Shown: positions 1,854 to 47,773, numbered from the stretch's first letter. The stretch is DNA of 64,000 bases from Sphingomonas sp. (GCF_036388435.1 NZ_DASVRV010000052.1:2886-66885), one strand, 5' to 3'. Notes: generated by a model from the sequence alone, not told the origin. Program-made: numbers and translations.

Positions 1854-2414
1854 TCAGTCCCGCGCGAAGATCTCGGCGTGCGGAACGACCAGCCCGAGCG
1901 CGGGGAGATGGAGGTCGGCGGGCGCCGGATGGGTCCGGTCGGACCAGGCGTCCGGCCCCGTCCGTTGCAGCACCCGGAGCCGTTCGGCGACCGGGTCGAT
2001 GAAGACGATCGTGTCGATGCCCCCCAGAGCGCGATATTCGTTGAGCTTGACGCCCTCGTCCTGGCGTCGCGTCGTCGGCGACAGGATCTCGATCACGACG
2101 CGCGGATCGCGTAGCGTCTTTTCCTCGTCCTCACTCGCGGCATCGCCGTGGCAGTCCACCGACATGTCGGGATAACGCACCGACAGGTCATGCGTCCTGA
2201 CCGCCATGTCCGACCCGAAGGGCCGGCATCCCGACCCACGCAGCGCACCGCCCAAAAAACGATACAGGTTCATCTGCACCCGCGCATGGGCGCGCGTGCC
2301 CCCCGCCATCATGCGGATCACGCCATTGTCGAGCTCGGCCTTGATGTCCGAACCCCATTCGATCCCCAGGAATTGCTCCGCCGTCAGCAAGGTGAGATCG
2401 GGTTGCGCCGCCAT
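1854..2414 (-). CDS. Uma2 family (DUF820, PD-(D/E)XK-like) endonuclease
   Basis: 186-aa ORF. The core VVIEILSPTTRRQDEGVKLNEYRALGGIDTIVFIDP matches the E-x-LSP...D...K...Y pattern of Uma2 proteins. Confidence 0.7.
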   Translation of the reverse strand: MAAQPDLTLLTAEQFLGIEWGSDIKAELDNGVIRMMAGGTRAHARVQMNLYRFLGGALRGSGCRPFGSDMAVRTHDLSVRYPDMSVDCHGDAASEDEEKTLRDPRVVIEILSPTTRRQDEGVKLNEYRALGGIDTIVFIDPVAERLRVLQRTGPDAWSDRTHPAPADLHLPALGLVVPHAEIFARD

Positions 2415-2457
2415 CCGAGGACCTTACGTCAATCGGCGGCGACGGGGAAGCCGCCGC

Positions 2458-2898
2458 TCAAGGCTTGACCACCACCAGCACGACGATCAGCGCGATCAGC
2501 AGCGCGGGCACCTCGTTGAGCAGTCTGAGCGTCTTGTTCGACACCGTCGCCCGCCCCGCCGCCAGCTTGCGCGCATAGCCGACCGCCCAGCCATGATAGC
2601 CCGTCAGCAGCAGCACGAAGAGCAGCTTGCCGTGCATCCACCCTTGGCTCCAGGCGCCCGACATCGTCGCCAGCACCGCGCCCAGCACCAGCACCACGAC
2701 CATCGCCGGGGTCAGGATGATGCGGCGCAGCTTACCCTCGCGCTCCACCCAGCGCGCGGCGTCGGCGGCGTCCGCCAAATTCTCCTGATGATAGACGAGG
2801 TAGCGCGGTAGCGCGAACAGCCCGGCCATCCAGAAGATCACGAAGATCAGATGCGCCGCCTTGATCCAGTCATACGCCACCAGCAACCGCTCCCACAT
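2458..2898 (-). CDS. hemJ: Protoporphyrinogen oxidase HemJ (UPF0093/CopD-like membrane protein)
   Basis: This is the C-terminal 146 aa of the 468-aa track ORF, from the internal Met (cat at 2896-2898): MWERLLVAYDWIKAAHLIFVIFWMAGLF.... It has four hydrophobic helices, lies next to hemE, and the upstream part of the track ORF is Arg/Gly-rich shadow sequence. Confidence 0.8.
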   Translation of the reverse strand: MWERLLVAYDWIKAAHLIFVIFWMAGLFALPRYLVYHQENLADAADAARWVEREGKLRRIILTPAMVVVLVLGAVLATMSGAWSQGWMHGKLLFVLLLTGYHGWAVGYARKLAAGRATVSNKTLRLLNEVPALLIALIVVLVVVKP

Positions 2899-2903
2899 GC
2901 CCG

Positions 2904-3866
2904 CTATCCCCGCACCCGCGCGATCAGCCGCTCGACATGCGCGATCGGCGTGTGCTGGCCGATGCCATGGCCCAGATTGAATATATGGGGCCGCTCGGGA
3001 AAGGCCGCCAGCACGCGCGCGACCCCGCGGTCGAGCGCGTCGCCGCCGGTCAGCAGCACCAGCGGATCGAGATTGCCCTGCACCGGCATCCCCGTCGGCA
3101 GCACCGCGTCCGCCCAGACCGGATCGACCGTCTCGTCCAGCCCGATCGCGTCGGGCGCGACCCCCGCGGCATAAGCGGCCAGCTTGGCCCCCGCGCCTTT
3201 TGGAAAACCGATGATCGGCGCCTCCGGGCACCGCTCCCGCAGGCGGGCCACGATCCGGGCGTTGGGCTCGATCACCCAGCGGTCGAATTGTTCGGGCGAC
3301 AGCGATCCCGCCCAGCTGTCGAACAGCTGTACCGCTTCCACGCCAGCCTCGATCTGCCGCGCGAGATACTCGACCGTCAGCTCGACGATCGCGTCGATGA
3401 TCTCCCCGAATGCTTGCTCGTCGGCATAGGCGAAGGACCGCGTCTCGCCCTGATCCTTCGATCCCGACCCGTTCACCATGTACGTCGCCACGGTCCAGGG
3501 AGAGCCCGCAAAGCCCAGGAACGTCGTCTCGGGCGGCAGGGCCCCCGCGACCCGCGCCACGGTCGCATAGACCGGCTCCAGCCGCCCTGGTGCCCGCTCC
3601 AGCATTCCCAGCGCCGTGTCGACCAGCCGCGGCGTCAGACGTGGCCCCTCGCCCACCCCGAAGCTCAGATCCTGCCCCAATGCCCAGGGCACCATCAGGA
3701 TGTCGGAGAACAGGATCGCCCCGTCGAACCCGAACCGACGGATCGGCTGCAGCGTCACCTCCGCCGCCGCTTCGGGATCGGTGGCGAGCGCCAGGAAGCC
3801 GCCCTTCTCCGCCCTGAGCGCGCGATATTCGGGCAGGTAGCGCCCCGCCTGCCGCATCAGCCACAT
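2904..3866 (-). CDS. hemE: Uroporphyrinogen decarboxylase (5' end probably extends to about 3947, see findings)
   Basis: 320-aa ORF beginning MWLMRQAGRYLPEYR, with FSDILMVP and other HemE motifs. The in-frame upstream codons encode AKPLLGVLKGRRLDIPP, which looks like the conserved HemE N-terminus. Confidence 0.93.
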   Translation of the reverse strand: MWLMRQAGRYLPEYRALRAEKGGFLALATDPEAAAEVTLQPIRRFGFDGAILFSDILMVPWALGQDLSFGVGEGPRLTPRLVDTALGMLERAPGRLEPVYATVARVAGALPPETTFLGFAGSPWTVATYMVNGSGSKDQGETRSFAYADEQAFGEIIDAIVELTVEYLARQIEAGVEAVQLFDSWAGSLSPEQFDRWVIEPNARIVARLRERCPEAPIIGFPKGAGAKLAAYAAGVAPDAIGLDETVDPVWADAVLPTGMPVQGNLDPLVLLTGGDALDRGVARVLAAFPERPHIFNLGHGIGQHTPIAHVERLIARVRG

Positions 3867-4063
3867 GGGAGGGATGTCGAGCCGTCGACCCTTGAGGACG
3901 CCGAGCAGCGGTTTCGCGCCATAGGGGGCTTCAACGGGCGTCGACAGGGCGGGAGCCTCTCTTCTTCACTAAAGAAGAATCTTGAAAAGGGTTGTGGTGA
4001 TAGTGGGCGCGTTGGGCACGGGGATTAAGCGCCCGTCCCCGATTTGCCAACAGCCGCGCCGGG

Positions 4064-4072
4064 TTGTCCACA
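4064..4072 (+). promoter_or_regulatory. DnaA box-like TTGTCCACA (1 mismatch to TTATCCACA)
   Basis: Read directly from the sequence (gggTTGTCCACAcgc). Confidence 0.45.
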
Positions 4073-4105
4073 CGCATATCCGGGCGAGTCCGCTTCTCGT
4101 CCCCG

Positions 4106-4114
4106 TTACCCACA
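4106..4114 (+). promoter_or_regulatory. DnaA box-like TTACCCACA (1 mismatch)
   Basis: Read directly from the sequence (ccgTTACCCACAggc). Confidence 0.45.
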
Positions 4115-4165
4115 GGCAGTGGACGATCGATCCACCTGTGGGCGGGCATGTGGACCGACGGGCGC

Positions 4166-4174
4166 TTGTCCACC
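4166..4174 (+). promoter_or_regulatory. DnaA box-like TTGTCCACC (2 mismatches)
   Basis: Read directly from the sequence (cgcTTGTCCACCgcc). Confidence 0.35.
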
Positions 4175-4228
4175 GCCCATCGCTCGCTTGGCGCGAGCGG
4201 CCGGTTCCGCTACCCGTCGTCCCCCGGC

Positions 4229-4237
4229 TTATCCACA
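4229..4237 (+). promoter_or_regulatory. Perfect consensus DnaA box TTATCCACA
   Basis: Read directly from the sequence (cggcTTATCCACAgat), 31 nt upstream of the GTG chosen for the DUF299 gene. Confidence 0.6.
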
Positions 4238-4267
4238 GATCGGTCCCGACCCCCACATGATGCTCAA

Positions 4268-5104
4268 GTGACGCGCCTCCATCTGCATCTCCTGTCGGAC
4301 TCGACCGGCGAAACGCTCGAGAACATCGCCAAGGCCGCGCTCGCCCAATATGACGCGGTCGACACCGTTCGGCATTTCTGGCCGATGGTCCGCACCGAGG
4401 CGCATCTGGAGCGCATCCTTCAGGAGATCGCGCAAAATCCCGGGCTCGTCATCTTCACCCTGGTCAACGCCGCGACCAGGCGGACGCTCGAACAGCGCTG
4501 CCGGACGCTGGGGCTTCCCGCGGTCGCTCCGCTCGATCCCGTCAACGACGCGTTGTCGGCGCTGCTCGGCCAGCAGGCCAAGGCACGGCCGGGTCGCCAG
4601 CACGTCCTCGACGCCGCCTATTTCGCGCGGGTGGACGCGATCCAGTTCACCATCGCGCATGACGACGGCATCGGCCAGGACGAATGGGAGGAAGCCGACA
4701 TCATGCTGGCCGGCGTCAGCCGCTCCTCCAAGACCCCGACCTCCATCTATCTCGCCAATCGCGGCTACAAGGTCGCCAACATCCCCGTGGTGGTCGAATC
4801 GCCCCCGCCCCGCGCCTTGTACGAACTCAAGCACCCGCTGATCGTCGGCCTCACCACCAGCGCCGACCGTCTGATCGCCATCCGCCGCAACCGTCTGTTG
4901 TCCCTGAACCAGGCGACCGAGACGAGCTATGTCGAGCAGGAGTCGGTATCCCGCGAGATCGCCTTTGCGCGGCGGATGTTCGCCGACAATGGCTGGCCGG
5001 TGATCGACGTCACCCGCCGCTCGATCGAGGAAACCGCGGCGGCCGTCATCGCCCTGCTGAACGATCGCGACGCGGGCGACGATCGCCGGGAAGGCCGCGC
5101 ATGA
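4268..5104 (+). CDS. Pyruvate,phosphate dikinase / PEP synthase regulatory protein family (DUF299 kinase/pyrophosphorylase)
   Basis: The homologous part starts at GTG 4268 (VTRLHLHLLSDSTGETLE...). It has the P-loop-like GVSRSSKTPTSIYLANRGYKVANIP. The upstream part of track ORF 4064..5104 overlaps the DnaA boxes and looks non-coding. Confidence 0.9.
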   Translation: MTRLHLHLLSDSTGETLENIAKAALAQYDAVDTVRHFWPMVRTEAHLERILQEIAQNPGLVIFTLVNAATRRTLEQRCRTLGLPAVAPLDPVNDALSALLGQQAKARPGRQHVLDAAYFARVDAIQFTIAHDDGIGQDEWEEADIMLAGVSRSSKTPTSIYLANRGYKVANIPVVVESPPPRALYELKHPLIVGLTTSADRLIAIRRNRLLSLNQATETSYVEQESVSREIAFARRMFADNGWPVIDVTRRSIEETAAAVIALLNDRDAGDDRREGRA

Positions 5105-5691
5105 CCCTGATCCTCGCCTCGGGCTCGGCCTCGCGCCGGGCGATGCTCGCCGCGGCCGGGGTGCCGTTCGAGGCGATGAGCCCGCAGGTGGACGAGGACG
5201 CCGCCAAGGCCGCGCTCGGCCGGGAGCGCCCCCGCGACCTGGCGGACGCGCTGGCGGAGCTCAAGGCGGTGAAGCTGTCGCTCCGCTGTCCCGACGCGCT
5301 GGTGCTGGGGTCGGATTCGCTGGTCGCGCTCGACGACGGCACGCTGCTCGACAAACCCGAAAGCCGCGAACAGGCGGCCGACCATCTCGCCCTCATGTCG
5401 GGGCGCGTCCACCGCCTCTGGAGCGCGGCGGTCGTGGCGGAGGGCGGTCGCCCCGTCTGGCGTCATGTCGAGGCGGCGACGATGCATGTCCGCCCGCTGT
5501 CCGACGGCTTCATCCGGCGTTATCTCGACGCGGAATGGCCGGCGATCGCGGGATGCGTCGGCTGCTACCGCGTGGAGGGACCGGGCGTGCAATTGTTCGA
5601 CCGCATCGAGGGATCGCATTTCACCGTGCTCGGCCTGCCGCTCCTGCCCGTGCTCGATTATCTGCGCACCCGGTCGGTCATGCCCCGGTGA
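5101..5691 (+). CDS. maf: Maf-like nucleoside triphosphate pyrophosphatase
   Basis: MTLILASGSASRRAMLAAAGVPFE... is a typical Maf N-terminus. The ATG overlaps the upstream stop (ATGA at 5101-5104). Confidence 0.9.
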   Translation: MTLILASGSASRRAMLAAAGVPFEAMSPQVDEDAAKAALGRERPRDLADALAELKAVKLSLRCPDALVLGSDSLVALDDGTLLDKPESREQAADHLALMSGRVHRLWSAAVVAEGGRPVWRHVEAATMHVRPLSDGFIRRYLDAEWPAIAGCVGCYRVEGPGVQLFDRIEGSHFTVLGLPLLPVLDYLRTRSVMPR

Positions 5692-5717
5692 CCGGCCGTT
5701 CCAGGCATGACCTTCCA

Positions 5718-6557
5718 GTGACCTTCCACGCATCCGGCCACGCATCCGGCCGTCCCTATGCCGAGGTGATCGGCGACCCGATCGCCCACTCCAAATCGCC
5801 GCTCATCCACGGCTTCTGGATAAATGCGCTCGGCCTCGACGCCGATTATCGCGCCACCCGCGTCGTGTCCGACGATCTTCCCGCCTACTTCGCGAGCCGC
5901 CGCGCCGATCCGCACTGGCGCGGCTGCAACGTCACCATTCCCCACAAGCTCGCCGCGCTCGACCATGTGGAGGACCGGGGCGACGTCCGCGCCACCATCG
6001 GCGCGATCAACCTGGCGATGCGCGCGCCGGACGGCGCGCTGATCGGCGCCAATACCGACGCCGGCGGTTTCTACGCGCCGATCGCCGGGTTCGACTTCGC
6101 CGACAGGCCGGCGGTGGTGATCGGGGCCGGCGGCGCCGCCCGCGCGGTGCTCTTCGCGTTGGCGAAGATGGAGGTCGGCCCGGTCACGATCCTCAACCGC
6201 AGTCCGCTCAAGGGGGCCGCGCTTTTGTCCGCCTTCAGGCTCAAGGGCCGCGCCCTGCCCCTATCCGCCCCTGTCCCGCCCGCCGCCCTGCTGGTCAATG
6301 CCAGCGCGCTCGGCATGGCCGGCCATCCCCCGCTCGATCTCGACCTGTCGACGCTGCCCGATGACGCGGTCGTCTATGATCTGGTCTACGCCCCGCTGGA
6401 GACCGATCTTCTGGCCCAGGCCAATGACCGCGGGCTGGAAACCGTCGACGGGCTCGAGATGCTCGTCGGCCAGGCCGCCCTCGCCTTCGAGTTGCTCTTC
6501 GGCATGGAGCCGCCGCGCGAGCGCGACGACGAACTGCGCGAGCTGCTGACGGCATGA
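5718..6557 (+). CDS. aroE: Shikimate dehydrogenase
   Basis: Motifs AHSKSPLIH, NVTIPHK, NTDAGG and GAGGAARA are present. The start is either GTG 5718 or GTG 5688, the latter overlapping the maf stop as GTGA. Confidence 0.9.
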   Translation: MTFHASGHASGRPYAEVIGDPIAHSKSPLIHGFWINALGLDADYRATRVVSDDLPAYFASRRADPHWRGCNVTIPHKLAALDHVEDRGDVRATIGAINLAMRAPDGALIGANTDAGGFYAPIAGFDFADRPAVVIGAGGAARAVLFALAKMEVGPVTILNRSPLKGAALLSAFRLKGRALPLSAPVPPAALLVNASALGMAGHPPLDLDLSTLPDDAVVYDLVYAPLETDLLAQANDRGLETVDGLEMLVGQAALAFELLFGMEPPRERDDELRELLTA

Positions 6558-7144
6558 TCACGGTCGGCCTCACCGGCTCGATCGGCATGGGCAAGTCGAC
6601 GGTCGCCGCGATGTTCGCCGACAAGGGCGTGCCCGTCTTCGACGCCGATGCCGCCGTCCACCGGCTCCAGGGCCCCGCCGGCCGCGTCGTCGCCGCGATC
6701 AAGGCCGCCTTTCCCTCGACCACCGGCCAGGCGGGCGTGAACCGCACCGCGTTGGCGGAGGCGGTGCTGGGTGACGACGCGGCGATGAAGCGGCTCGAAG
6801 CGATCGTCCATCCCGCCGTGGGCGAGGAACGCGCCGCCTTTCTCGCCGACCATCGGGGGGCGCCGATCGTCCTGTTCGATATCCCGCTGTTGTTCGAGAC
6901 GGGCGGCGAGGCGCGGGTCGACAAGGTCGTCGTCGTCTCCGCCGCGCCAGAAATCCAGCGCGCGCGCGTCCTCGCCCGACCCGGCATGACCCCGGCCAGG
7001 CTCGACGCCATCCTCGCCCGCCAGCTTCCCGACGCCGCCAAGCGCGCCCGCGCCGATTTCGTGATCGCGACGGACGTGCCGCCGGACGAGACCCGCGCCG
7101 CCGTCGCCCGCGTCGTCGCTTGCTTGCTGGCCGGCAAAGGCTGA
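6554..7144 (+). CDS. coaE: Dephospho-CoA kinase
   Basis: 196 aa with P-loop GLTGSIGMGKST. The start forms an ATGA overlap with the aroE stop. Confidence 0.93.
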   Translation: MITVGLTGSIGMGKSTVAAMFADKGVPVFDADAAVHRLQGPAGRVVAAIKAAFPSTTGQAGVNRTALAEAVLGDDAAMKRLEAIVHPAVGEERAAFLADHRGAPIVLFDIPLLFETGGEARVDKVVVVSAAPEIQRARVLARPGMTPARLDAILARQLPDAAKRARADFVIATDVPPDETRAAVARVVACLLAGKG

Positions 7145-7154
7145 TATCGCCCCC

Positions 7155-7853
7155 ATGCGCGAGATCGTCTTCGACACCGAAACCACCGGCTTCGATTTTT
7201 CCCGGGGCGACCGCCTCGTCGAGATCGGCTGCATCGAATTGGTCAACCGCGTCGAGACCGGGCGCAGCTTCCACGCCTATCATCACCCCGAACGCGCCAT
7301 GCCGCCCGAGGCGGCGGCGGTGCACGGGCTGACCGACGCCTTCCTGTCGGACAAGCCGCTTTTCCACACCCGCGCCGACGAGCTGCTCGAATTCCTGGGC
7401 GACGCGCCGCTCGTCGCACACAACGCCACGTTCGATTTCGGCTTTCTCAACGGCGAGCTGGGGAAATGCGGGCGCCCGCTCATCCCGCTCGACCGCATGG
7501 TCGACACGCTGCCCATGGCGCGCGTCCGTCATCCCGGCGCCAAGCATAGTCTGGACGCGCTTTGCTCGCGCTTCGGGATCGACCGCTCGCACCGTGTCCT
7601 TCACGGCGCGCTGCTCGACGCGCAGCTGCTCGCGCAGGTCTATGTCGAGCTGACGGGCGGTCGCCAGATCGGCCTGGGGCTGCTCGCCGACCAGCCCGCC
7701 GCCGCCGCTCCGCTCGTCGCCGATCGGCCCCGTATCGCCCGGCCCGCCAGAGTTTTCGAGCTTGGGGCGGGAGAACTTGCCGCGCATCGCGCGTTCATCT
7801 CCACCCTCGCCGATCCCCTTTGGGGGAAGGACGACGCAGCAGTGACAACATGA
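7155..7853 (+). CDS. dnaQ: DNA polymerase III subunit epsilon (3'-5' exonuclease)
   Basis: 232 aa with Exo I (VFDTETTG), Exo II (HNATFDFGFL) and Exo III (HGALLDAQLLAQVY) motifs. Confidence 0.93.
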   Translation: MREIVFDTETTGFDFSRGDRLVEIGCIELVNRVETGRSFHAYHHPERAMPPEAAAVHGLTDAFLSDKPLFHTRADELLEFLGDAPLVAHNATFDFGFLNGELGKCGRPLIPLDRMVDTLPMARVRHPGAKHSLDALCSRFGIDRSHRVLHGALLDAQLLAQVYVELTGGRQIGLGLLADQPAAAAPLVADRPRIARPARVFELGAGELAAHRAFISTLADPLWGKDDAAVTT

Positions 7854-7866
7854 ACGGAGTAGGTTG

Positions 7867-8451
7867 ATGGAGATTCGGGTATCGGGCCACCAGGTCGAGG
7901 TGGGCGACGCGCTCAAGACCCATGTCGAGGACCGTCTCCAGGCGATCGCGGCCAAATATTTCACCCGCGCCATCTCGTCCGACACGACGTTCGGCAAGGG
8001 GCCGCACGACCATGGCTTCACCTGCGCCATCGCCACCCATGTCACCCGCGGGCTCGTGCTCAAGGGCCGCCACCAGGCCCAGGACGCGCACGTCGCCTTC
8101 AACGGCGCCGCCGATCACCTCGAGAAACAGCTTCGCCGCTATAGCCGTCGCCTCAAGGACCATCATGCCCTCGAGACGGTCGAGGTCGCCGAGGCGGGCG
8201 CCTACGACAATGCCCGTTACACCCTGTTCCAGGAACCCCATGTCGACGAGGAGGAAGTTCCCGACGCCCCGCTGATCGTCGCGGAGACGCGGGTCGACGT
8301 GCCCGACGCCAGTGTCGGCGACGCGGTGATGATGCTCGATCTGCGCAACACCGCCGCCCTGTTGTTCAAGAATTCGGGAACGGGCGATTACAACATGGTC
8401 TATCGGCGCGGCGACGGCACGATCGGCTGGGTGGAACCGCACGGCGCCTGA
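7867..8451 (+). CDS. hpf: Ribosome hibernation promoting factor, long form
   Basis: MEIRVSGHQVEVGDALKTHVEDRL... plus a C-terminal dimerisation-type domain (DVPDASVGDAVMMLDL...YRRGDGTIGWVEP). ATG 7867 is preferred over the track's TTG at 7864. Confidence 0.9.
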   Translation: MEIRVSGHQVEVGDALKTHVEDRLQAIAAKYFTRAISSDTTFGKGPHDHGFTCAIATHVTRGLVLKGRHQAQDAHVAFNGAADHLEKQLRRYSRRLKDHHALETVEVAEAGAYDNARYTLFQEPHVDEEEVPDAPLIVAETRVDVPDASVGDAVMMLDLRNTAALLFKNSGTGDYNMVYRRGDGTIGWVEPHGA

Positions 8452-8525
8452 CGCTTCCGCAACGGGTCCCGTCGCGCTAAGGGCCGCCGCGCCGGCGGCC
8501 GAATTGCGGCCTATGGCGCGACGGG

Positions 8526-9008
8526 ATGACCAACGACCCCATGTCCGATCTGAGCGACTTGTTGCGGCCCGATGCCGTCGCCTTCGACCTGGCGAGCAGC
8601 GGCAAGAAGGCGCTGCTTCAGGCGATGGCGGCGCTCGTCGCCCCGCAGGTCGGACTCGACCCGCGTCTCGTCGCCGATCGGCTGGGCGAGCGGGAGCGAC
8701 TGGGCTCGACCGGCTTCGGCCACGGCGTCGCCATCCCGCACGGCCGCGTCGAGGGACTGACCCAGATCGTCGGCGCCTTTGCCCGGCTCGCCCATCCGGT
8801 CGAGTATCAGGCGGTCGACGACCTGCCCGTCGACCTGATCTTCCTGCTGCTGTCACCGGTCGACGCGGGCGCCGATCATCTGAAGGCGCTGGCCCGCGTC
8901 TCGCGCACGCTGCGCGACGCCCGCTTCCTCGCCAAGCTGCGCGGCGCCGGGTCGCGCGACGCACTGTTCGCGCTGTTCACGACGGACGAGGCCCGTGACG
9001 CGGCCTGA
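8526..9008 (+). CDS. ptsN: PTS IIA-like nitrogen regulatory protein
   Basis: 160 aa with the phosphorylatable-His motif GHGVAIPHG. It follows hpf, as in many proteobacteria. Confidence 0.88.
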   Translation: MTNDPMSDLSDLLRPDAVAFDLASSGKKALLQAMAALVAPQVGLDPRLVADRLGERERLGSTGFGHGVAIPHGRVEGLTQIVGAFARLAHPVEYQAVDDLPVDLIFLLLSPVDAGADHLKALARVSRTLRDARFLAKLRGAGSRDALFALFTTDEARDAA

Positions 9009-9450
9009 GGGAGAGGCCGCGCATTACCGCGCGCTGGAGTCGCTCTACGCCGCGGCGCCGATCAACAAGCTGTTCGATTCGACGCTGGAGATCGAGTCGG
9101 GGGGCTTGGCCCGCATCCGCTTCACCCTCGACGAGCGCCATTTCCACGCCGCCGGCGCCGTTCACGGCACCAGCTATTTCAAGATGCTCGACGATGCCGC
9201 CTTTTACGCCGCCAACAGCCTGGTCACCGACCGTTTTCTGCTGACGACCGCCTTCACCCTGTTGTTCACCCAGCCGCTCGGCGTCGGCCCCGTCATCGCC
9301 GAGGGACGCTGGACCAACGGACGCCGCCGCGTCTTCAACGCCGACGCCCGGCTGCTCGACGCCGGCGGGGAGGAGGTCGCGCGCGGCACGGGAACCTTCA
9401 TGCGCTCGCGCATCCCGCTCGCGACGCTCCCCGGCTATCGGACGGCGTGA
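8995..9450 (+). CDS. PaaI family (hotdog fold) thioesterase
   Basis: 151 aa. The size and HGTSYFKMLDDAAFYAAN ... GRWTNGRRRVFNADARLLD pattern are typical of PaaI/YdiI-type thioesterases. The GTG start overlaps the end of ptsN. Confidence 0.7.
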   Translation: MTRPEGEAAHYRALESLYAAAPINKLFDSTLEIESGGLARIRFTLDERHFHAAGAVHGTSYFKMLDDAAFYAANSLVTDRFLLTTAFTLLFTQPLGVGPVIAEGRWTNGRRRVFNADARLLDAGGEEVARGTGTFMRSRIPLATLPGYRTA

Positions 9451-9785
9451 ACGGACGCCTGCCCGCCTCGGTCGTCGCCAGCGCGCTGATCCGGCGCGTC
9501 AACGATGCGGGCGGCTTCGCGGTGGTGCGCGCCAGGGGCGACCCACAGGCGGGCGCGCTCCTGCTCCTGACGCGCGCGCGCGACGGGACGACGCGGCTGT
9601 TCGAGCGCGGGCTCGGCGCGTCGGGCGCATCGGAGTCGATCGAGTCGACTCCGACCGGCGCCTCCCCGGAGTCGGTCGAGGAATATTGGCGCAAGCGCCG
9701 CGCGCGCGACCCCGATCTGTGGGTGATCGAACTGGACATCCCGGACGCGGAACGGTTCGCCGCTGAAACGCTGGGTGGCGATTGA
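9447..9785 (+). CDS. DUF1491 family protein
   Basis: 112 aa. The N-terminal LPASVVASALIRRVNDAGGFAVVRARGD resembles the alphaproteobacterial DUF1491 family as I recall it. The call is from memory only. Confidence 0.5.
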   Translation: MNGRLPASVVASALIRRVNDAGGFAVVRARGDPQAGALLLLTRARDGTTRLFERGLGASGASESIESTPTGASPESVEEYWRKRRARDPDLWVIELDIPDAERFAAETLGGD

Positions 9786-9958
9786 CGCTCCCGTCACCCT
9801 GGGCAAGGGCGGCATCATCGAAATAAGCGTTGTGCCGAACCCGTGTGCGATACGGTGGCGGTTACGCAGTCGGGGGGCAATCCAGGACCGGCGCGCAGGC
9901 TTGCGAAGCTCAAGCCACGCCGCCGGTTCGCGAACCAACCGCATATTTGTGACGACCA

Positions 9959-10600
9959 GTGACGATCCTTCAACGCGCCGCCACGTTTGCGGTCATGACC
10001 CTCGCCCTTGGTGGCCTGATGTCCACCAGCACCATCACCAACGCCGCCGAACTCGACCGGCCCGCGCTGACCACCTCTCTCACCACACCCGCCATCAACG
10101 CCCCGGCCCAGACGCCGGTTCCCACGGTTTTTCCGACGCTTGATCCCGAAGCATCCGCCGCGCCGAAACCGGCGCCTGCGACCTTCACCTCGCTCGACCA
10201 CGCGGTCGCCGCCCATGCCGCCGGCGAGACCGACAATGCCGAGGCGCTTCGCTGCCTCGCCACCACCATCTATTTCGAATCCAAGGGCGAGCCGCTCGCC
10301 GGCCAGCTCGCGGTCGCGAACGTCGTGCTGAACCGCGCCAAGTCGGGGCGCTTCGCCGCCGATGTCTGCGGCGTCGTCAAACAGCGCGGGCAATTCTCCT
10401 TCGTCCGCCGTGGCGTCCTGCCCAGCGTCGACGCGGTGAACCGCATGTATCGCACCGCCGAAGCGGTCGCCAAGGTCGCCCTGGCCTCCGCGTGGAAGAG
10501 CCCCGCGCCCGATGCGCTGTTCTTCAACGGTCGCAAGGTCGGTCTGCCCGGCCGGTTGACCAAAGTCGCGCTGATCGGGAATCATATCTTTTATCGGTGA
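9959..10600 (+). CDS. SleB-type cell wall hydrolase, secreted
   Basis: 213 aa with a signal peptide and a Pro/Ala-rich linker. The C-terminal domain LATTIYFESKGEPLAGQLAVANVVLNRAKSGRFAADVCGVVKQRGQFSF is typical of Hydrolase_2/SleB. Confidence 0.8.
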   Translation: MTILQRAATFAVMTLALGGLMSTSTITNAAELDRPALTTSLTTPAINAPAQTPVPTVFPTLDPEASAAPKPAPATFTSLDHAVAAHAAGETDNAEALRCLATTIYFESKGEPLAGQLAVANVVLNRAKSGRFAADVCGVVKQRGQFSFVRRGVLPSVDAVNRMYRTAEAVAKVALASAWKSPAPDALFFNGRKVGLPGRLTKVALIGNHIFYR

Positions 10601-10714
10601 CACGCAGGGCGGGCGGCGCCACCTTGGCGCAGGACCCGCCCAAGCCCGGCCGGGCTAGCATCGCTACGACCGACGGCGCGGCTTCGCCGCGACGCATCCC
10701 CCAAGTCTCTTGCC

Positions 10715-11236
10715 TTGTTCTACGCCTGTTCCTATCCGGCTCCGGTGCTGAAGGAACCGCCCCTCTCCTGCCTCGACCCCGCGACCGGAACGCTCTGCGC
10801 CGCCGACGTCGCGCGCGGGGTCACGCGGATGCTCCACCGGCACGACCTGACCGCGATGGCGGAGGTGCCGCTCGACAATGGCCGTCGCGCCGACCTGATG
10901 GCGATCGACGCCAGGGGACGGATCGTCATCGTCGAGATCAAGGTGTCGCGCGCCGATCTGCTCGGGGACGGCAAATGGCCCGACTATCTGGGTCAGTGCG
11001 ATCGCTATTACTGGGCCTTGCCCGCCGGGTTCGACACGGCGCCGCTCGATGCCCCCGCCTTTCTGCCGCACCGCACGGGCGTGATCGTCGCCGATCAGTA
11101 TGATGCGGAGATCGTCCGCGAGGCGTCGACCGAGGCGCTCGCCGCGCATGTGCGCAAACGCTGTACCCTGTCCTTCGCCAGGCGCGCGGCGCGGCGCATG
11201 CTCGCGCTCACCGATCCCGACGCCTATACCAGCTAG
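10715..11236 (+). CDS. MmcB family DNA repair protein (PD-(D/E)XK fold)
   Basis: The core GRRADLMAIDARGRIVIVEIKVSRADLLGDGKWPDYLGQCDRYYWA fits the MmcB pattern. The exact start is uncertain, with GTG 10745 also possible. Confidence 0.6.
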   Translation: MFYACSYPAPVLKEPPLSCLDPATGTLCAADVARGVTRMLHRHDLTAMAEVPLDNGRRADLMAIDARGRIVIVEIKVSRADLLGDGKWPDYLGQCDRYYWALPAGFDTAPLDAPAFLPHRTGVIVADQYDAEIVREASTEALAAHVRKRCTLSFARRAARRMLALTDPDAYTS

Positions 11237-11829
11237 AGCTTGGGTCCCGACATCGCGCCGCGCGCGCGCTTGGGCGCCTCCGCGAGCAATTTGGCCAACG
11301 CCGGGTTGCGCGCGTCGCGGCGCGCATAATCGCGCGCGGACATGCCCGCGACATTGTCCGTCTGGTCGGGATCGGCGCCCGCCGTCAGCAACAGGCGCGC
11401 GGTCGTGACGTCGCGACGCTGTACCGCGCGGATCAGCGGCGTCTCACCCCCGCCATTGCCCAGATTCACATTGGCGCGTCCCGCCACCAGCACCGGGATC
11501 AGCCCGGCATGACCGGCCGTCACCGCCAGCAGGAGCGGGGTATCCCCGCGCCCGTCGCGCACATTGGGGTCGGCACCCTTCTGCAGCAGATAGCGCAGGT
11601 ACACCTCGTCGCCGCGCCGTGCGACGATATGGAGGGCGGTCTCGCCGCTACCCACGTCGCGCGTGTTGATGATGTTCGCGCCCGGGCGATCGAGGATCGC
11701 GAGCACGTCATTGCCCTTGGCGTCGCGCACCGCCTGCAGGAACTTGTAGCTTTCCGACTGCTGCTGCGCCCCGGCGGGAACGGCGATGGCGAGCAGCAGC
11801 ATGGCGGGGAGAAAGGCTCTTGGCGACAT
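11233..11829 (-). CDS. Secreted ankyrin repeat protein
   Basis: The start is taken at the internal Met (MSPRAFLPAMLLLAIAVPAGAQ signal peptide). Repeated G-ETALH/TPL..A......LL..GADPN units follow. Confidence 0.85.
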   Translation of the reverse strand: MSPRAFLPAMLLLAIAVPAGAQQQSESYKFLQAVRDAKGNDVLAILDRPGANIINTRDVGSGETALHIVARRGDEVYLRYLLQKGADPNVRDGRGDTPLLLAVTAGHAGLIPVLVAGRANVNLGNGGGETPLIRAVQRRDVTTARLLLTAGADPDQTDNVAGMSARDYARRDARNPALAKLLAEAPKRARGAMSGPKL

Positions 11830-11905
11830 CGCGCGGGATCCCGGATAGATTGGCCGAACAGGTGACTTGCTCACCCGCCGCTAACAGATCAAGGCTGGCT
11901 TCGTC

Positions 11906-12496
11906 ATGAATATTCGCTCGACCTTGGCGGCCGCCGGGCTGGCGTTGCTGCTCGCCGGGTGCGGCGCCGCGACCCCGCCCGAGCAGCCGCCGCTTGCCGG
12001 TGCCCGCATCGGCGGCCCCTTCGCGCTGACCGACGAGAATGGCCGCGCGACGACCGACCGCGACCTGACCGGAAAGTGGCGCATCATGTATTTCGGCTAC
12101 ACCTTCTGCCCCGACATCTGCCCGACCGACGCGCGGAACATCGGGGCGGGGCTCAAGCGCTTCGAGGCGGAGGACCCCGATCGTGGCGCGCGGGTGACGC
12201 CGGTGTTCGTAACGGTCGATCCCGCGCGCGACACGCCCCAGGTGCTCAAAGCCTTCACCGACGCCTTTCACCCCCGCATGATCGGCCTGACCGGCAGCGG
12301 GGACGCGATCGCGCGCGTCGCGAAAAGCTATGCCGTCTATTACAGCAAGGGTGATCCCGCCCCCGGCGGCGGCTATCTGATGGATCATCAGCGGGTCACC
12401 TACCTCATGGACCCGCAAGGTCGTCCCGTGGCGCTGCTGCCCGCCGACAAGAGCGCCGACGCGGTCGCGGCCGAACTGGCGCGGTGGGTCCGATGA
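11906..12496 (+). CDS. SCO1/SenC family copper chaperone, lipoprotein
   Basis: 196 aa with lipobox LLAGC, the CPDICP (CxxxC) motif and the conserved His region (YLMDHQRVTYLMDP). Confidence 0.9.
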   Translation: MNIRSTLAAAGLALLLAGCGAATPPEQPPLAGARIGGPFALTDENGRATTDRDLTGKWRIMYFGYTFCPDICPTDARNIGAGLKRFEAEDPDRGARVTPVFVTVDPARDTPQVLKAFTDAFHPRMIGLTGSGDAIARVAKSYAVYYSKGDPAPGGGYLMDHQRVTYLMDPQGRPVALLPADKSADAVAAELARWVR

Positions 12497-16218: not shown

Positions 16219-17307
16219 TCACGCCATTCTGGTCGCGCGCGCGATGAGCTGGATCAGGAAAGGCGCGCGCGCGAGCCAGGGCAGGGCGGCCGGCGCGACC
16301 GGTCCCTCCGCCAGATCGCGGACCAGCCCGGCCACGCGGATCGGTCGCGCGGCCCGGGCGGCGAAGCGGCGCTGCCATGCCGCGCTCGCCATCGGTCCGC
16401 CGCCGGCATGAGCGGCCGCCGCCGAACAGCCGCTCGCGATCGCGATGCCCATGCCCTCGCCCGCCAGCGACGGGATCACCGCCGCCTGGTCGCCCAGCCG
16501 GAACAGCCCCGCCATCCCCTCGCGCATCCGCCAGCCATAGGGGACGTTGGCGACCGCATCGATGCCGCTTCCCGTCGCGCGCATCGCCAGCCGGTCGCCA
16601 AAGGCGGGCGCCGCGTCCGCGATGGCCCGGAGCAGCGCCTCGGGCGACCCCGCCTCATGCAGCCGCGAGCGTCGCACCGCCAGGCACAGATTGGCCGATC
16701 CGTCCTCCTGCACCGCGAGCCCGGCATAGCCACGGTCGAACAGGTGAAGCTCGATCGCATCCTCGATCCGGCGGCGCATCGCGTCCGAGGGGGCGAGCCG
16801 CACCCGTATACCCAAGGCCGGATCGTCGCCCGGCCCCGGCGTCGGTCGGGCGAGCCCGCGTAGATCGTGCTTGCCCGTCGCCAGGAAGAGCGCGTCGGGC
16901 GCGATCACCGTCCCGTCCGCCAGGACGACGGAGCCGGCCTCCGCGCTCCGCACCGCGACGCCGCGCTCCACCCCCGCGCCCGCGCGCTCGGCCTCCGCGA
17001 GCATCAGCGTGTCGAGCGTCCGCCTGGACACGGCGAGCGCCGGATAGGGCAGGGGGGCCTCCACCTCGCGCGTCCCCGCGAAAACATGAACGCGCCCGAT
17101 CCGGCGCCGGCTCAGCCGGTCGGGATCGACCCCCAGCGCGCGGATACGGTCGAGCGTCCGCCAGCTCAGAAACCCGCCGCACAGCGCGTCACCCGTCTGG
17201 CGCGTCCGCTCCAGGATCACGGGACGTGAATCGGCGCGCGCCAGCCCGATCGCCGCCGCGCTTCCCGCCGGCCCGGCGCCGATGATCAGCGCAGGCGTTC
17301 GACGCAT
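16219..17307 (-). CDS. FAD-dependent oxidoreductase (aromatic hydroxylase / geranylgeranyl reductase-like)
   Basis: 362 aa with the N-terminal dinucleotide-binding ALIIGAGPAGSAAAIGLA and a later GD..A motif (RLGDQAAVIPSLAGEGMG). Confidence 0.8.
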   Translation of the reverse strand: MRRTPALIIGAGPAGSAAAIGLARADSRPVILERTRQTGDALCGGFLSWRTLDRIRALGVDPDRLSRRRIGRVHVFAGTREVEAPLPYPALAVSRRTLDTLMLAEAERAGAGVERGVAVRSAEAGSVVLADGTVIAPDALFLATGKHDLRGLARPTPGPGDDPALGIRVRLAPSDAMRRRIEDAIELHLFDRGYAGLAVQEDGSANLCLAVRRSRLHEAGSPEALLRAIADAAPAFGDRLAMRATGSGIDAVANVPYGWRMREGMAGLFRLGDQAAVIPSLAGEGMGIAIASGCSAAAAHAGGGPMASAAWQRRFAARAARPIRVAGLVRDLAEGPVAPAALPWLARAPFLIQLIARATRMA

Positions 17308-17966
17308 AGCCGGAACGGAAAGGCACGGAATATGCGCGCGCCGTCGACGCCCGCCTCCGCCAGAATGTCACGCCACTCGGCAGGACGAAAAGATCGGGCG
17401 ATCGAGATGCGGCCATCGTGGCGCACGATCGGGTGCCAGCGCGCCAGCATGGCGAGCAGCGGATAACCCGCATGAGCGAAGCGGTGGCGGTGGAGGTCGT
17501 TGACGAACCAGCAACGCGCATTGGCTTCCATGAAGCGCAGAAAGGCGAGGAGCTGCGGATGCGTCATGTGATGCGCGACGAGGCTGGAAACGACCGCGTC
17601 CCAATCGCCGCCCATATCGGCATAATCGCCGGTGACGTAGCGGATCGGCATGGTCGCGGGAGTATGCGCCGTCGCGGCGGGCGCGCTACGCGGGTTCAGA
17701 TCGACGCCGACCAGCTCGGCGGTGACGTCATGCCGCGCCGCCCAGCGTGAAATGCTGCGCAGCATATCCCCGTCGCCGAAGCCGACATCGAGCAGGCGCA
17801 ACCGACGATTCCGCACCGCGCGCTTCAGAAAGGCGAGGGTGGGCCGGCGGGCCATCGTGGCGCTGTTCACCCGCGCCAGATCGCCGATCAGTGCCGAATA
17901 GACCGCGGGATCGAGGTCGTCGGCATCCATCAGTTCGTCGGCGGTGGAGCGACGGGCGAGCGTCAC
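17286..17966 (-). CDS. Class I SAM-dependent methyltransferase
   Basis: The start is GTG 17966, overlapping the PKS stop as GTGA. SAM motif I RLLDVGFGDGDM is present. The 3' end overlaps the flavoprotein start by 22 nt. Confidence 0.8.
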   Translation of the reverse strand: MTLARRSTADELMDADDLDPAVYSALIGDLARVNSATMARRPTLAFLKRAVRNRRLRLLDVGFGDGDMLRSISRWAARHDVTAELVGVDLNPRSAPAATAHTPATMPIRYVTGDYADMGGDWDAVVSSLVAHHMTHPQLLAFLRFMEANARCWFVNDLHRHRFAHAGYPLLAMLARWHPIVRHDGRISIARSFRPAEWRDILAEAGVDGARIFRAFPFRLCVERLR

Positions 17967-19027
17967 GCGGCGGCGCTCCGAAAGCCGAAGCCCTCCGCCG
18001 CCAGCCCCGGCCCGAAGGCGAGCGCCAGCCCCTCGCGCACCGCCGGCCCGTCGAGCAGCCGGGCAAGCACGAACATGAGCGTCGCCGAAGACATGTTGCC
18101 GCAATCGGCGAGCACGCCGCGCGAAACGGCGAGCGCGTCGTCAGGCAGACGAAACGCGGTCTGCACCGCGTCCAGGATCGATCGCCCGCCGGCATGGACC
18201 GCCCAGCCATCGATGGATGCGGGCGGTCGTCCCCCCGTCGCGTCGCGCGCCAGATCGGGGTCGCCCAGTGCCTGGGCGATCCGCCCCGGTACCTCGCCGG
18301 ACAGGTGCATCGCGAAACCGTGATCGGTGATGTTCCAGCGGATCAACGCGTCCGAATCGGGCAAGGTCGTCGCGAAAGGCTGGTCGATCGCGAAGCCGCG
18401 CGGCTCGGCGGTCACCAGCGCCGCCGCGGCGCCGTCACCGAACTGAAGCATCGCGAGCAACGGTTCGAGCGCCTCGACCTCCTGCAGGTGAAGCGTCGAA
18501 AGCTCCACCGTCACGACGAGCACGCGCGCGGCCGGGTCGGAGCGGACGACGTGGCGCGCGCTGCGCAGCGCCGCGACCGCGGCGTAACAGCCCATGAAGC
18601 CGACGAGCAGGCGCTCGACCGAGGGCGCCAGTTCCAATCGTCGCGCAAGGATCTGGTCGATCCCCGGCGCGACGAAGCCGGTGCAGCTCGCCACCACGAG
18701 ATGGGTGATCCCCGCGAGCGACACCCGCTCGCCGAGCGCGGCGACCGCGCGCAATGCGAGGTCCGGCGCCGCCTCGGCATAGACCGCCATCCGCCGCGCG
18801 GTGCCCGGACGCTCGCCATGGTAGAAGCCGTCAGGGTCGACGGGCGACCCGCCCACCGACGTCTCGGGGAGCACCGACCAGCGGTGACGGATGCTCGCGC
18901 GGCCGGCCATGCGATCGAACAGCTTCCGCTCGCGCGGCGACACGCGCGTGCGCGCCCAGGCGATGAACGCGTCATGGATGTCATGGGCAGGCACGGCGGT
19001 GCCGACGGCGTTGATATGGGGCGTCAA
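17963..19027 (-). CDS. Type III polyketide synthase (chalcone/stilbene synthase superfamily)
   Basis: 354 aa. The Cys-His-Asn triad contexts are present: VVASCTGFVAPG, WAVHAGGRSILD and CGNMSSATLMFVL. Confidence 0.92.
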   Translation of the reverse strand: MTPHINAVGTAVPAHDIHDAFIAWARTRVSPRERKLFDRMAGRASIRHRWSVLPETSVGGSPVDPDGFYHGERPGTARRMAVYAEAAPDLALRAVAALGERVSLAGITHLVVASCTGFVAPGIDQILARRLELAPSVERLLVGFMGCYAAVAALRSARHVVRSDPAARVLVVTVELSTLHLQEVEALEPLLAMLQFGDGAAAALVTAEPRGFAIDQPFATTLPDSDALIRWNITDHGFAMHLSGEVPGRIAQALGDPDLARDATGGRPPASIDGWAVHAGGRSILDAVQTAFRLPDDALAVSRGVLADCGNMSSATLMFVLARLLDGPAVREGLALAFGPGLAAEGFGFRSAAA

Positions 19028-22353: not shown

Positions 22354-23592
22354 ATGACGCGCCGGACGCTGCTCGCGACCGGCGGCGCGGCGCTCGTCAC
22401 GGCCTGCGCGCGGGGCCGCGATCCGGAAGCGCTCAGGCTTTGGGCGATGAGCTACGAGGGCGATTATTCGCCGCTGCTGATGCCGGCATTCACCCGGGCG
22501 ACGGGCATTCCGGTCGAGGTGCAGTCGCTCCCCTGGACCGCCGCGCACGAGAAGCTGCTGACGGCCCATGCCGGGGACTCGCTGCCCGACGTGCTGATGC
22601 TGCCCAATGGCTGGGTCGGCGAGTTCGCGCTGGTCGGCGCGCTGGTGCCCGTCGTCGATCCCGCCTTCGTGGCCGACCTGTTTCCCGGCACGATCGAGAC
22701 GGTGCGCGCGGGCGGGGTCGATTTCGCCGTGCCCTGGTCGGTCGCGCCGCAGGTGCAATTCTACCGCCGCGACCTGCTCGCCCGCGCCGGGTACGACACG
22801 CCGCCGGCCGATTGGGACGGCTGGCGCGCGATGGGCCGCGCGCTGAAGCGGCGGCGGCCGGACGATTACGTCATGCTCCTGCTCCTCAACTGGCCCGACG
22901 CGCTGTTCACCTTCGCGGGGCAGGCGGGGGCGAAGCTGCTGCGCGACCGGGACACGCGGGGGAATTTCCGCACGCCCGAATTCCGCGCCGCCCTGGGCTT
23001 CTACAAGTCGCTGTTCGACGACGGATTCGCGCCGCGTGCGTTGTCGACCGAGATCCAGGACCCGCTCGCCGCCTTCGCCCAGGGCTATTTCGCCATCTAT
23101 CCCAACGGGCCGTCCCTGCTGCTCGACCTGCACCGCCGCCGTGCCGAGATCGCGGCAGATCATTGGGGGATCGCGCGAATGCCGGGGCCGCGCGGTCCGG
23201 GCGCGGCGTCGGGCGTCAGCGCCAGCCTGTGCGTGTCCGCTCGCTCGCATCGTCCGGCCGACGCCTGGAGCCTGGTCCGCCACATGACCTCGACGGCGAC
23301 GGAGCTTCGCTTCCAGACCCTTATCGGCAACCTTCCCGCGCGGCGGAGCGCATGGGATCACCCGCAATTGTCGATCCCGCTGCTGCGGCCGTTCGCCGAG
23401 CAGATGCTCGAACCCGCGCCGGCGCCGTCCATCGTTGAATGGGAGCGCATCCGCCTGGAGGTGCAGCTGATCGCCGAACGCGTGGTGCGCGGCCTGGTCA
23501 CGATCGATCAGGGCCTGATCGAGATGAACCGCCGTGCGGACCGGCTGCTCGCCAGGCGTCGCGCGCTGGTCGAGGCGGGGAAGATCGCATGA
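22354..23592 (+). CDS. ABC transporter substrate-binding lipoprotein (carbohydrate-type, family 1)
   Basis: The start is chosen at MTRRTLLATGGAALVTAC, which has a twin-Arg-like n-region and a lipobox. The remainder looks like an extracellular solute-binding protein. Confidence 0.85.
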   Translation: MTRRTLLATGGAALVTACARGRDPEALRLWAMSYEGDYSPLLMPAFTRATGIPVEVQSLPWTAAHEKLLTAHAGDSLPDVLMLPNGWVGEFALVGALVPVVDPAFVADLFPGTIETVRAGGVDFAVPWSVAPQVQFYRRDLLARAGYDTPPADWDGWRAMGRALKRRRPDDYVMLLLLNWPDALFTFAGQAGAKLLRDRDTRGNFRTPEFRAALGFYKSLFDDGFAPRALSTEIQDPLAAFAQGYFAIYPNGPSLLLDLHRRRAEIAADHWGIARMPGPRGPGAASGVSASLCVSARSHRPADAWSLVRHMTSTATELRFQTLIGNLPARRSAWDHPQLSIPLLRPFAEQMLEPAPAPSIVEWERIRLEVQLIAERVVRGLVTIDQGLIEMNRRADRLLARRRALVEAGKIA

Positions 23593-24470
23593 CGCGGCAG
23601 GAGCGCGCGGCCTGGGCGTTCACGCTGCCGGTGCTGGCGGTTATCGCGCTCGTCTTCGTCGTGCCGACCGCGCTGGCGATGGCGCTGAGCGTCACCGATT
23701 ACGACCTGTACGCGCTGGCCGACTGGTCGAACCTGAATTTCGTCGGGCTCGGCAATTTCGCCGACCTCCTGTCGACTCCGCTCTTCTGGCGGGCGCTGGG
23801 CAACACCGCGCTGTTCGCGCTGATCGGGGTGCCCGCCGCGATCGGCGCGTCGCTCGCCACCGCCCTGCTCCTCAACTCGGCGACCGTGCGGTGGAAGCCC
23901 TTCTGGCGCGTGCTGCTGTTCGCGCCCTACGTGACCAGCGTGGTCGCGACCGCCGTGGTGTGGCGCTTCCTGCTCAACACGCGGTTTGGGCTGATCAACT
24001 ATGCGCTGGGCCTCGTGAACATCCCGCCGGTCGACTGGCTGGGCGATCCGCGCGCGTCGATCCCGGCGATCCTGTTGTTCGTGACGTGGAAGATCTTCGG
24101 CTACAACATGATCGTGTTCACCGCGGCGCTGGCGGCGGTGCCCGGCGACCTGATGGAGGCCGCGCGGCTCGACGGGGCGGGGCGGTGGACGCGCTTTCGC
24201 CACGTGACCCTGCCGGCTATCGGTCCGACCCTGATCTTGGCGGGGGTGATGAGCGTGGCGGGATTCCTGCAGCTCTTCGCCGAGCCCTATGTGATGACGC
24301 TGGGCGGCCCCGCGCAGAGCACGGTCACCGTCCTGTACTTCATGTTCGACGAGGGGTTCAAATGGTGGAACCTGGGACAGGCCTCCGCGGTGGCGTTCGT
24401 GCTGTTCCTGCTGATCCTGGCGCTCACCCTGATCCAGACGCGAATCGGGCGGCGGTACGAATGGCTTTGA
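23589..24470 (+). CDS. Carbohydrate ABC transporter permease (MalF/UgpA-like)
   Basis: The start forms an ATGA overlap with the binding-protein stop. Six hydrophobic segments and the EAA-type loop (EAARLDGAGRWTRFRHVTLP) are present. Confidence 0.88.
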   Translation: MTRQERAAWAFTLPVLAVIALVFVVPTALAMALSVTDYDLYALADWSNLNFVGLGNFADLLSTPLFWRALGNTALFALIGVPAAIGASLATALLLNSATVRWKPFWRVLLFAPYVTSVVATAVVWRFLLNTRFGLINYALGLVNIPPVDWLGDPRASIPAILLFVTWKIFGYNMIVFTAALAAVPGDLMEAARLDGAGRWTRFRHVTLPAIGPTLILAGVMSVAGFLQLFAEPYVMTLGGPAQSTVTVLYFMFDEGFKWWNLGQASAVAFVLFLLILALTLIQTRIGRRYEWL

Positions 24471-26393: not shown

Positions 26394-26535
26394 GCCGTCC
26401 TCCCCTGCCGGACGCCATCCGTCGGGCGCACGGCGGATGCAAGGGAGTGGCTCGAAGCTAGGGCCAGGAAAACGCACCGGGCCACCACGCGCCGCGATCC
26501 GCCTCGCGTCCGTCCGCCAGCGATCTATGCTCACC

Positions 26536-26560
26536 TATGTTTTTAATTTTTTTTAATATA
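26536..26560. promoter_or_regulatory. Almost pure A/T tract in the divergent promoter region
   Basis: tatgtttttaattttttttaatata is 25 nt with a single G. It lies between the ABC ATPase gene and the autotransporter gene, in otherwise GC-rich DNA. Confidence 0.4.
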
Positions 26561-26668
26561 CCATCCTGACGGGAGCCATTTCGCGGCGCCCATGTTGTGC
26601 GTGGGGGCGATTCGGGTCGTTCATCGCGGATGACCGCGCGGATACGGCGCCCCGGGGGTAGATTTACG

Positions 26669-47718: not shown

Positions 47719-47744
47719 GTGTCACAACCGTTCGGTTGTGACAC
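47719..47744. repeat. Perfect 26-bp palindrome GTGTCACAACCG-TT-CGGTTGTGACAC (copy 1)
   Basis: Read directly from the sequence. The arms are 12 bp with a 2-nt spacer. It lies 30 nt beyond the stop of the orphan lipoprotein gene. Confidence 0.9.
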
Positions 47745-47773
47745 CGGCCCGTCACGCGTTCTTTCAGCGAGCA

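Follow-up and report, generated by a model that had tools for sequence, protein, structure and literature searches.

The non-coding gap between the divergent hemE and DUF299 genes, at positions 3948-4267 of the 64-kb stretch of Sphingomonas DNA analysed here ('the window'), is very probably the DnaA-dependent origin of replication (oriC) of the chromosome, and an origin of the alphaproteobacterial hemE type. A preliminary description of the sequence had named this gap as oriC, a reading that is supported by gene context, a conserved cluster of DnaA boxes, an AT-rich tract and published predictions. The identification is correct but ordinary and brings no new biology, an origin at hemE having already been predicted for the family by DoriC/Ori-Finder. 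These tools place oriC at hemE in most Sphingomonadaceae (PMC4741004), and the same location is given for Sphingopyxis granuli TFA and eight other Sphingopyxis, with an alignment that marks conserved DnaA boxes and a putative DNA unwinding element (DUE) (PMC4741004), for Sphingomonas sp. MM-1 and Sphingobium strains (PMC5144681), and for Novosphingobium PP1Y and N. aromaticivorans (PMC4059872). Further afield, marker frequency in Hyphomonas peaks close to hemE (PMC6650430), and the Caulobacter origin, Cori, has been mapped at hemE/duf299 (PMC6393856), which bears out the earlier statement that the C. crescentus origin sits between these two genes. A search of the literature turned up no sphingomonad in which an origin has been mapped or tested experimentally.

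To the left of the gap, on the minus strand, Pfam identifies rho (453-1709), a Uma2-family gene (1854-2414), hemJ/UPF0093 (2458-2898) and, as the left border, hemE, encoding uroporphyrinogen decarboxylase (2904-3947; URO-D, E = 4.8e-107, open-frame residues 18-352). On the right, the border is formed by the plus-strand DUF299/kinase-pyrophosphorylase gene with its GTG start (4268-5104; Kinase-PPPase, E = 1.6e-91), followed on the same strand by maf, aroE, coaE, dnaQ and hpf. The hemE/ori/DUF299-maf-aroE-coaE-dnaQ arrangement given in the preliminary description is thus matched gene for gene by the Pfam order; it is the gene cluster of hemE-type alphaproteobacterial origins attributed to Brassinga, Siam and Marczynski (2001), as cited in PMC4741004. 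Third-position GC frame analysis likewise returns the five minus-strand genes claimed for the left side; on the right, the plus orientation stands and the claimed count of eleven genes comes out as 10 or 11 by third-position GC and Pfam, the first minus-strand gene being an ankyrin gene at 11233-11880. For comparison, related loci of 12.8 kb each were gathered by a DUF299 protein scan, taking one genome per species, to give 80 loci, nearly all from Sphingomonas with a few from Stakelama or unclassified strains. The gap lies between the same divergent neighbours, hemE and DUF299, in 79 of these 80, and in the remaining one the contig ends too early. The conserved sphingomonad arrangement runs rho, membrane protein, hemE (PMC4741004), and the flanks of the window agree with it: rho, membrane protein (hemJ) and hemE on one side of oriC, yqfL (DUF299) on the other. 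The window differs in the Uma2-family gene, a putative endonuclease, lying between rho and hemJ. None of dnaA, dnaN, parAB or gidAB is found among the 40 annotated genes of the window.

The left boundary of the gap depends on where hemE begins. Its open frame starts after a TGA at 3966-3968, and no ATG, GTG or TTG occurs in it ahead of the conserved KPLL motif; position 4 of the Pfam URO-D profile aligns with residue 18 of this frame, and a start at the ATG at 3866 would cut off the conserved URO-D N-terminus. The sole candidate is a CTG at 3945-3947 on the minus strand, 8 nt downstream of a Shine-Dalgarno-like GAGAGG (3956-3961, minus strand), and hemE probably starts there. Because the ATG at 3866 would truncate URO-D and only the CTG is left, the non-coding gap is taken as 3948-4267, about 320 nt; the gap of ~400 nt first described is indeed non-coding over this span, but its left boundary at 3867 does not hold, hemE probably extending to 3947. 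The same situation recurs among relatives: 29 of the 80 sequences, the window included, lack a canonical hemE start, and 26 of those 29 (the window and 25 related loci, among them L005, L006, L008, L010-L016, L018-L020 and L027) carry a single CTG with a Shine-Dalgarno-like motif upstream. In other species a TTG or ATG stands at the aligned L-T-D codon. To judge from the aligned sequences, the CTG start of hemE is probably one that relatives share.

Every motif coordinate given in the preliminary description proved exact on re-reading, including those of four same-strand DnaA boxes. The most conserved is the perfect box TTATCCACA at 4229-4237 (plus strand), 31 nt upstream of the DUF299 start, in which TT..CCACA is invariant or nearly so and at whose position 77 of the 80 sequences have a box with at most one mismatch. 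Also on the plus strand are TTACCCACA at 4106-4114, for which the genus consensus is again TTATCCACA and which follows a conserved GTCCCCG; TTGTCCACC at 4166-4174, with two mismatches and the consensus TTATCCACC; and TTGTCCACA at 4064-4072, with one mismatch. All four are present, but the last is specific to the window's own clade, an aligned box occurring only in the window and two relatives (L001 and L002). The list was also incomplete, for it missed a set of inverted boxes at 4118-4157 that are degenerate in this strain and were overlooked for that reason. These begin with TCGTCCACT at 4118-4126 (minus strand; consensus TCATCCACA, position-conserved as CTGTGGAT), which is paired head to head with the box at 4106-4114. 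There follow a weak pair, CGATCCACC (plus) and CCGCCCACA (minus), at 4128-4145 (inverted repeat I11), where the genus consensus is the inverted box CTGTGGACG, and CGGTCCACA at 4149-4157 (minus strand; consensus T(T/C)ATCCACA). This last is better conserved than any other inverted box: among 20 diverse sequences its TGTGGA is invariant but for the second G, which is nearly so.

In this strain most of the boxes in the gap are degenerate, and only three have one mismatch or fewer. At that threshold the 64-kb window contains five matches to TTATCCACA, whereas shuffles predict 2.03; three of them fall within 174 nt, in the gap, and at the window's background rate the chance of such a three-box cluster is ~3e-7 for a given 400-nt stretch. 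At two mismatches or fewer the gap is not exceptional, its 4 boxes per 300 nt equalling the interior of aroE at ~5.7-6.1 kb, so that the signal in this strain rests on the three good boxes. Neither rival cluster was retained as an origin candidate: that at 5.7-6.1 kb is coding, and the next densest, at 47.8-48.35 kb, lies inside a low-GC open reading frame and so is not non-coding either; neither is conserved as a cluster. The latter frame (239 aa, 47774-48493, minus strand) lacks third-position GC bias and is flanked by copies of a palindromic element of ~26 nt, GTGTCACAACCGTTCGGTTGTGACAC at ~47720-47745 and a variant at ~48516-48541; from its sequence, the segment 47720-48541 looks like a small acquired insert.

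The nearest relative is 94% identical to the window in its DUF299 protein and 76% in its gap, and a set of 57 gaps that are less than 85% identical to one another has only ~58-61% identity to it. Six boxes keep both position and orientation across these 57 non-redundant sequences: 4106-4114 (+), 4118-4126 (-), 4137-4145 (-), 4149-4157 (-), 4166-4174 (+) and 4229-4237 (+). DnaA boxes with one mismatch or none number 9.21 per kb over the 79 gaps but 0.055 per kb over 916 kb of flanking sequence, a 169-fold enrichment; for GANTC, the motif methylated by CcrM, the densities are 14.3 and 2.27 per kb, a 6.3-fold enrichment. These figures come from related loci and hence do not count independent events. 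The window's cluster, the enrichment and the six position-conserved boxes together make up a cluster of DnaA boxes in non-coding DNA, as an oriC has.

Such a cluster could also be imagined in a divergent promoter, with DnaA regulating the transcription of hemE and/or the DUF299-maf-aroE-coaE-dnaQ operon and initiation taking place elsewhere, for example near dnaA. The best conserved box, at 4229-4237, does lie between a promoter-like element and the DUF299 start, the hemE leader overlaps the AT-rich tract, the window's own GC-skew minimum lies away from the gap, and the annotated part of the window is without dnaA, dnaN and parAB; but at least six boxes in both orientations, held at fixed spacing over ~130 nt and accompanied by a degenerate array beside the AT tract, go far beyond known DnaA-regulated promoters. 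The same locus is moreover the mapped origin of Caulobacter, with a marker-frequency peak nearby in Hyphomonas, and is picked by Ori-Finder, which uses whole-genome skew, in complete sphingomonad genomes. We therefore hold a promoter without an origin to be quite improbable, and continue to read the gap as oriC.

An origin requires a place to open, and the gap contains a candidate in an AT-rich tract at 3961-3990, ~70% A+T in a genome of 69% G+C, which overlaps the hemE leader. By nearest-neighbour energy the 30-mer at 3959-3988 stands at -33.9 kcal/mol against a mean of -48.2 (sd 3.3), and at lengths of both 30 and 40 nt only one other stretch of the 64 kb is less stable than the tract. (The least stable 30-mer of the window, 26535-26564, is 87% A+T, includes TTTAATTTTTTTTAA, and lies between a divergent ABC-transporter ATPase gene and a gene for an 1832-aa autotransporter.) Among the 80 sequences, the median of the maximum A+T over 30 nt is 73% at the same place, and in the Sphingopyxis alignment the matching stretch is labelled as a putative DUE. 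The earlier proposal of a candidate unwinding element here accordingly gains from both its low stability and an AT-richness kept in relatives: a short (30 nt), AT-rich putative DUE adjoins the DnaA boxes.

Between the tract and the boxes lie three abutting degenerate 9-mers, TGTGGTGAT, AGTGGGCGC and GTTGGGCAC, at 3993-4019 (minus strand), which keep the TGTGG/GTNGG half of an inverted DnaA box; in the alignment (A1), T79, G80, T81 and G83, then G89, T90, G92 and G93, and finally G97, T98 and G100 are invariant or nearly so. In the genus consensus the third 9-mer reads CGTGGATAG, two mismatches from TGTGGATAA, and at the position of the array Sphingopyxis has TTGTGGTGGTTTGTGG...GGATAGC. We propose from these sequences that the 9-mers may be low-affinity DnaA sites pointing toward the AT tract. 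The arrangement may be likened to Escherichia coli oriC, where the DUE is flanked by a box whose TTATCCACA strand reads toward the DUE, and then by low-affinity arrays and anchoring boxes; unlike E. coli, the present locus has GANTC and no GATC/SeqA system, different flanking genes, and no 13-mer repeats. It also resembles the basal unwinding system of Bacillus subtilis in that box-like 9-mers point toward the AT tract. The rule for that system calls for three or more NAN trios no farther than 16 nt from a box that has at most two mismatches and faces an AT-rich region, and trios of the GAAGAAGAG type have been tabulated for Phenylobacterium (PMC8287927). In the window, AAA-GAA-GAA (three NAN units) occurs at 3971-3979, 13 nt from TGTGGTGAT (3993-4001), as is expected by chance in an A-rich tract, and this nearest oriented box has three mismatches where the rule allows two; the genus-consensus box CGTGGATAG, with two mismatches, is more than 16 nt from any NAN run. 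The window therefore departs from the trio rule.

The GC skew is compatible with an origin at the gap, although within the window it does not pinpoint it. The cumulative minimum falls at 17,378, ~13 kb to the right of the gap, on a curve that is flat over 12-18 kb, in a window of 64 kb with only 4 kb to the left of the gap. Skew is negative from 2000 to 12000 (-0.03 to -0.13 per kb) regardless of gene orientation, which shifts the local cumulative minimum to 17,378; in the plus-strand genes at 4.3-12 kb it is -0.083, whereas a leading strand departing from 4.1 kb would show the opposite sign. The closest relatives (L001, L003 and L009) also have negative skew in the DUF299-dnaQ genes, and most species do not. 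Beyond 12 kb the plus-strand skew is positive (+0.036 in plus-strand and +0.021 in minus-strand genes) and it stays so from ~18 kb to 64 kb in genes of both orientations, which fits an origin to the left of ~12-18 kb with a fork moving rightward. Among relatives, the 4 kb to the right have a higher skew than the 4 kb to the left in 72% of 65 loci (mean difference +0.032), a comparison confounded with gene orientation and hence accorded little weight.

Taken at face value, the minimum at 17,378, the flat stretch at 12-18 kb and the orientation-independent negative skew over 2-12 kb could instead mean that the origin lies 8-14 kb to the right, the hemE gap being a relic. Such a displaced origin is scarcely credible: offsets of ~10 kb are within the noise of skew curves, a relic would not hold six boxes in register across a genus, and the 12-19 kb interval is fully coding, with no non-coding gap and only scattered two-mismatch boxes, none with one mismatch or fewer. 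The interval, considered as a candidate and rejected on these grounds, is occupied by SCO1, a YgjP-like protein, a class A PBP, a FAD-binding protein, an unannotated ORF (17286-18104) and a type III PKS. The AT skew of the window is strong, and opposite in sign, in two stretches, from +0.19 to +0.22 at 17000-19000 in the minus-strand genes of the type III polyketide synthase region, and from -0.19 to -0.25 at 23000-25000 in the plus-strand genes of an ABC permease region.

The regulatory elements of the gap, read as oriC, are only partly those of Caulobacter. Both GANTC sites noted in the preliminary description are present, but as a pair they are not significant alone, ~0.57 being predicted per 400 nt. 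One, GAATC at 3977-3981, is inside the AT tract, where GA(A/T)TC is kept in most relatives; the other, GAGTC at 4086-4090, is part of a GATTC(GATTC) cluster conserved in relatives. With a median of four GANTC per gap and the 6.3-fold enrichment given above, the relatives have the clustered sites of the Cori type. Over the whole window GANTC is ~3.3-fold under-represented (91 against 304 expected), a scarcity that fits a genome with CcrM-type methylation, as against the enrichment in the relatives' origin gaps. CtrA sites (TTAA-N7-TTAA) are absent from the window's gap even with one mismatch allowed, and a full site occurs in just one of the 80 related gaps and is absent from the other 79; the multiple CtrA sites that overlap the DnaA sites of Cori are missing here. 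The only near matches to this motif in the window are the least stable 30-mer at 26535-26564 and one at 40125.

The left half of the gap is marked by a conserved module, GGGG(A/C)TTA.GCG...TTGCCAACAG, at 4020-4053, in which CAACA is invariant and TGC, TTA and GGG nearly so, and which may be a hemE promoter (TTGGCA-N17-TAA.CC read leftward) or the site of an IHF-like factor. Here a block ending in TGCCAACAG(C)TTGAC follows the 9-mer array. The 15-mer TGCCAACAGNTTGAC occurs once per locus, at this position only, in 59 of the 80 loci and never in the flanks. Its CTTGAC half has been lost in the window's clade (window 4045-4072; L001, L002 and L009), and in the window, L001 and L002 an extra DnaA box lies ~10 nt downstream instead. 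A check for IHF sites found a CAA-N4-TTG core inside TGCCAACAGCTTGAC in 59 of the 80 loci, the TTG half being lost in the window. Toward the other border, the element G.TTGGCG-N15-GCTA(C/G)C at 4186-4213 (plus strand), with G, T, T, G, G and then T and A downstream invariant, appears promoter-like for the DUF299 gene. A scan with E. coli consensus sequences called no E. coli-type promoters or terminators in the gaps of the window or of two relatives (L022 and L005).

Conserved blocks of this kind might also reflect a product, either a small RNA or a short protein, encoded in the region. Caulobacter Cori contains an sRNA gene (PMC6393856) and ORFs of 80-95 aa overlap the gap, but those ORFs fail the third-position GC test and the indels among relatives are not multiples of three. 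As for RNA, the gap matches no Rfam family at gathering score, and RNAalifold finds no conserved structure, its consensus reaching -5.8 kcal/mol with a covariation term of -0.1 and 7 of its 14 pairs arising from pairing between inverted DnaA boxes. An RNA gene in the gap was accordingly rejected, the only tRNA lying at 32241-32327, and a coding or RNA explanation of the conserved blocks is most unlikely. Conservation of the blocks is better read as that of oriC.

From the observed anatomy we infer each step by which initiation might proceed. DnaA would sit on the better boxes at 4106-4114, 4149-4157 and 4229-4237, and in this clade also at 4064-4072, from which cooperative binding of DnaA-ATP would spread to the weaker boxes (4118-4145 and 4166-4174) and the same-orientation 9-mers (3993-4019). 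The resulting oligomer would be directed leftward into the AT tract at 3961-3990, leading to melting and helicase loading. Transcription of hemE and DUF299 would start inside the origin and may help or modulate its opening, by analogy with Caulobacter. The GANTC sites would make the region a target of CcrM methylation, and CtrA, being without binding sites here, would have no direct role.

Set against its closest published counterparts, the locus is a recognisable member of the family with a few traits of its own. In a by-eye comparison without statistical alignment, the published alignment text having been machine-read, the flanking genes and the order of blocks agree with the Sphingomonadaceae oriC: the Sphingopyxis order of AT-rich putative DUE, TGTGG repeats, ..GGATAGCGCGCTTTAGGCG.., ..TTGGCCAAC...TTGAC and then boxes is the same here, and Sphingopyxis and the Sphingomonas consensus share a head-to-head box pair (..TCCACAGC TTGTGGAT..) followed by further boxes. 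This strain differs in having boxes more degenerate than the genus consensus, in lacking the CTTGAC half of the 15-mer, and in its extra box at 4064-4072, which recurs only in its two closest relatives. Cori, for its part, contains G and W DnaA boxes, five CtrA sites, an IHF site, five GANTC sites and an AT-rich region (PMC6393856). The present origin resembles it in position between hemE and DUF299, in weak or moderate DnaA boxes, in an AT-rich region on the hemE side, in GANTC sites and, as the promoter-like elements suggest, in having the transcription start regions of both flanking genes inside it. The chief difference is that none of the five CtrA sites of Cori has a counterpart here; furthermore, near-consensus boxes are more numerous than in Cori, the window having a perfect TTATCCACA and most relatives several, and no sRNA was detected.

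These differences allow a more speculative reading, in which sphingomonad origins would form a distinct, CtrA-free regulatory variant of the hemE-type origin with three features; taken jointly, we consider it doubtful. The first is that TGCCAACAGNTTGAC and the adjacent GGGGCTTATGCGG would bind an origin-specific factor or form an origin-embedded hemE promoter, which would drive transcription through the unwinding element. The second is that the weak CTG start of hemE would keep strong origin transcription from overproducing the enzyme, and the third that the window's clade would have swapped half of the 15-mer for an extra DnaA box. Three side points, the lack of CtrA sites, the origin-only 15-mer and the CTG start that hemE probably has next to the candidate unwinding element, offer a starting point for a modest comparative study, which would bear on the regulation of origins in an order for which the literature yielded no experimentally tested one. 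In the meantime, the identification fixes the origin for annotation, for analyses of replichores and strand bias, and for the building of oriC-based vectors.
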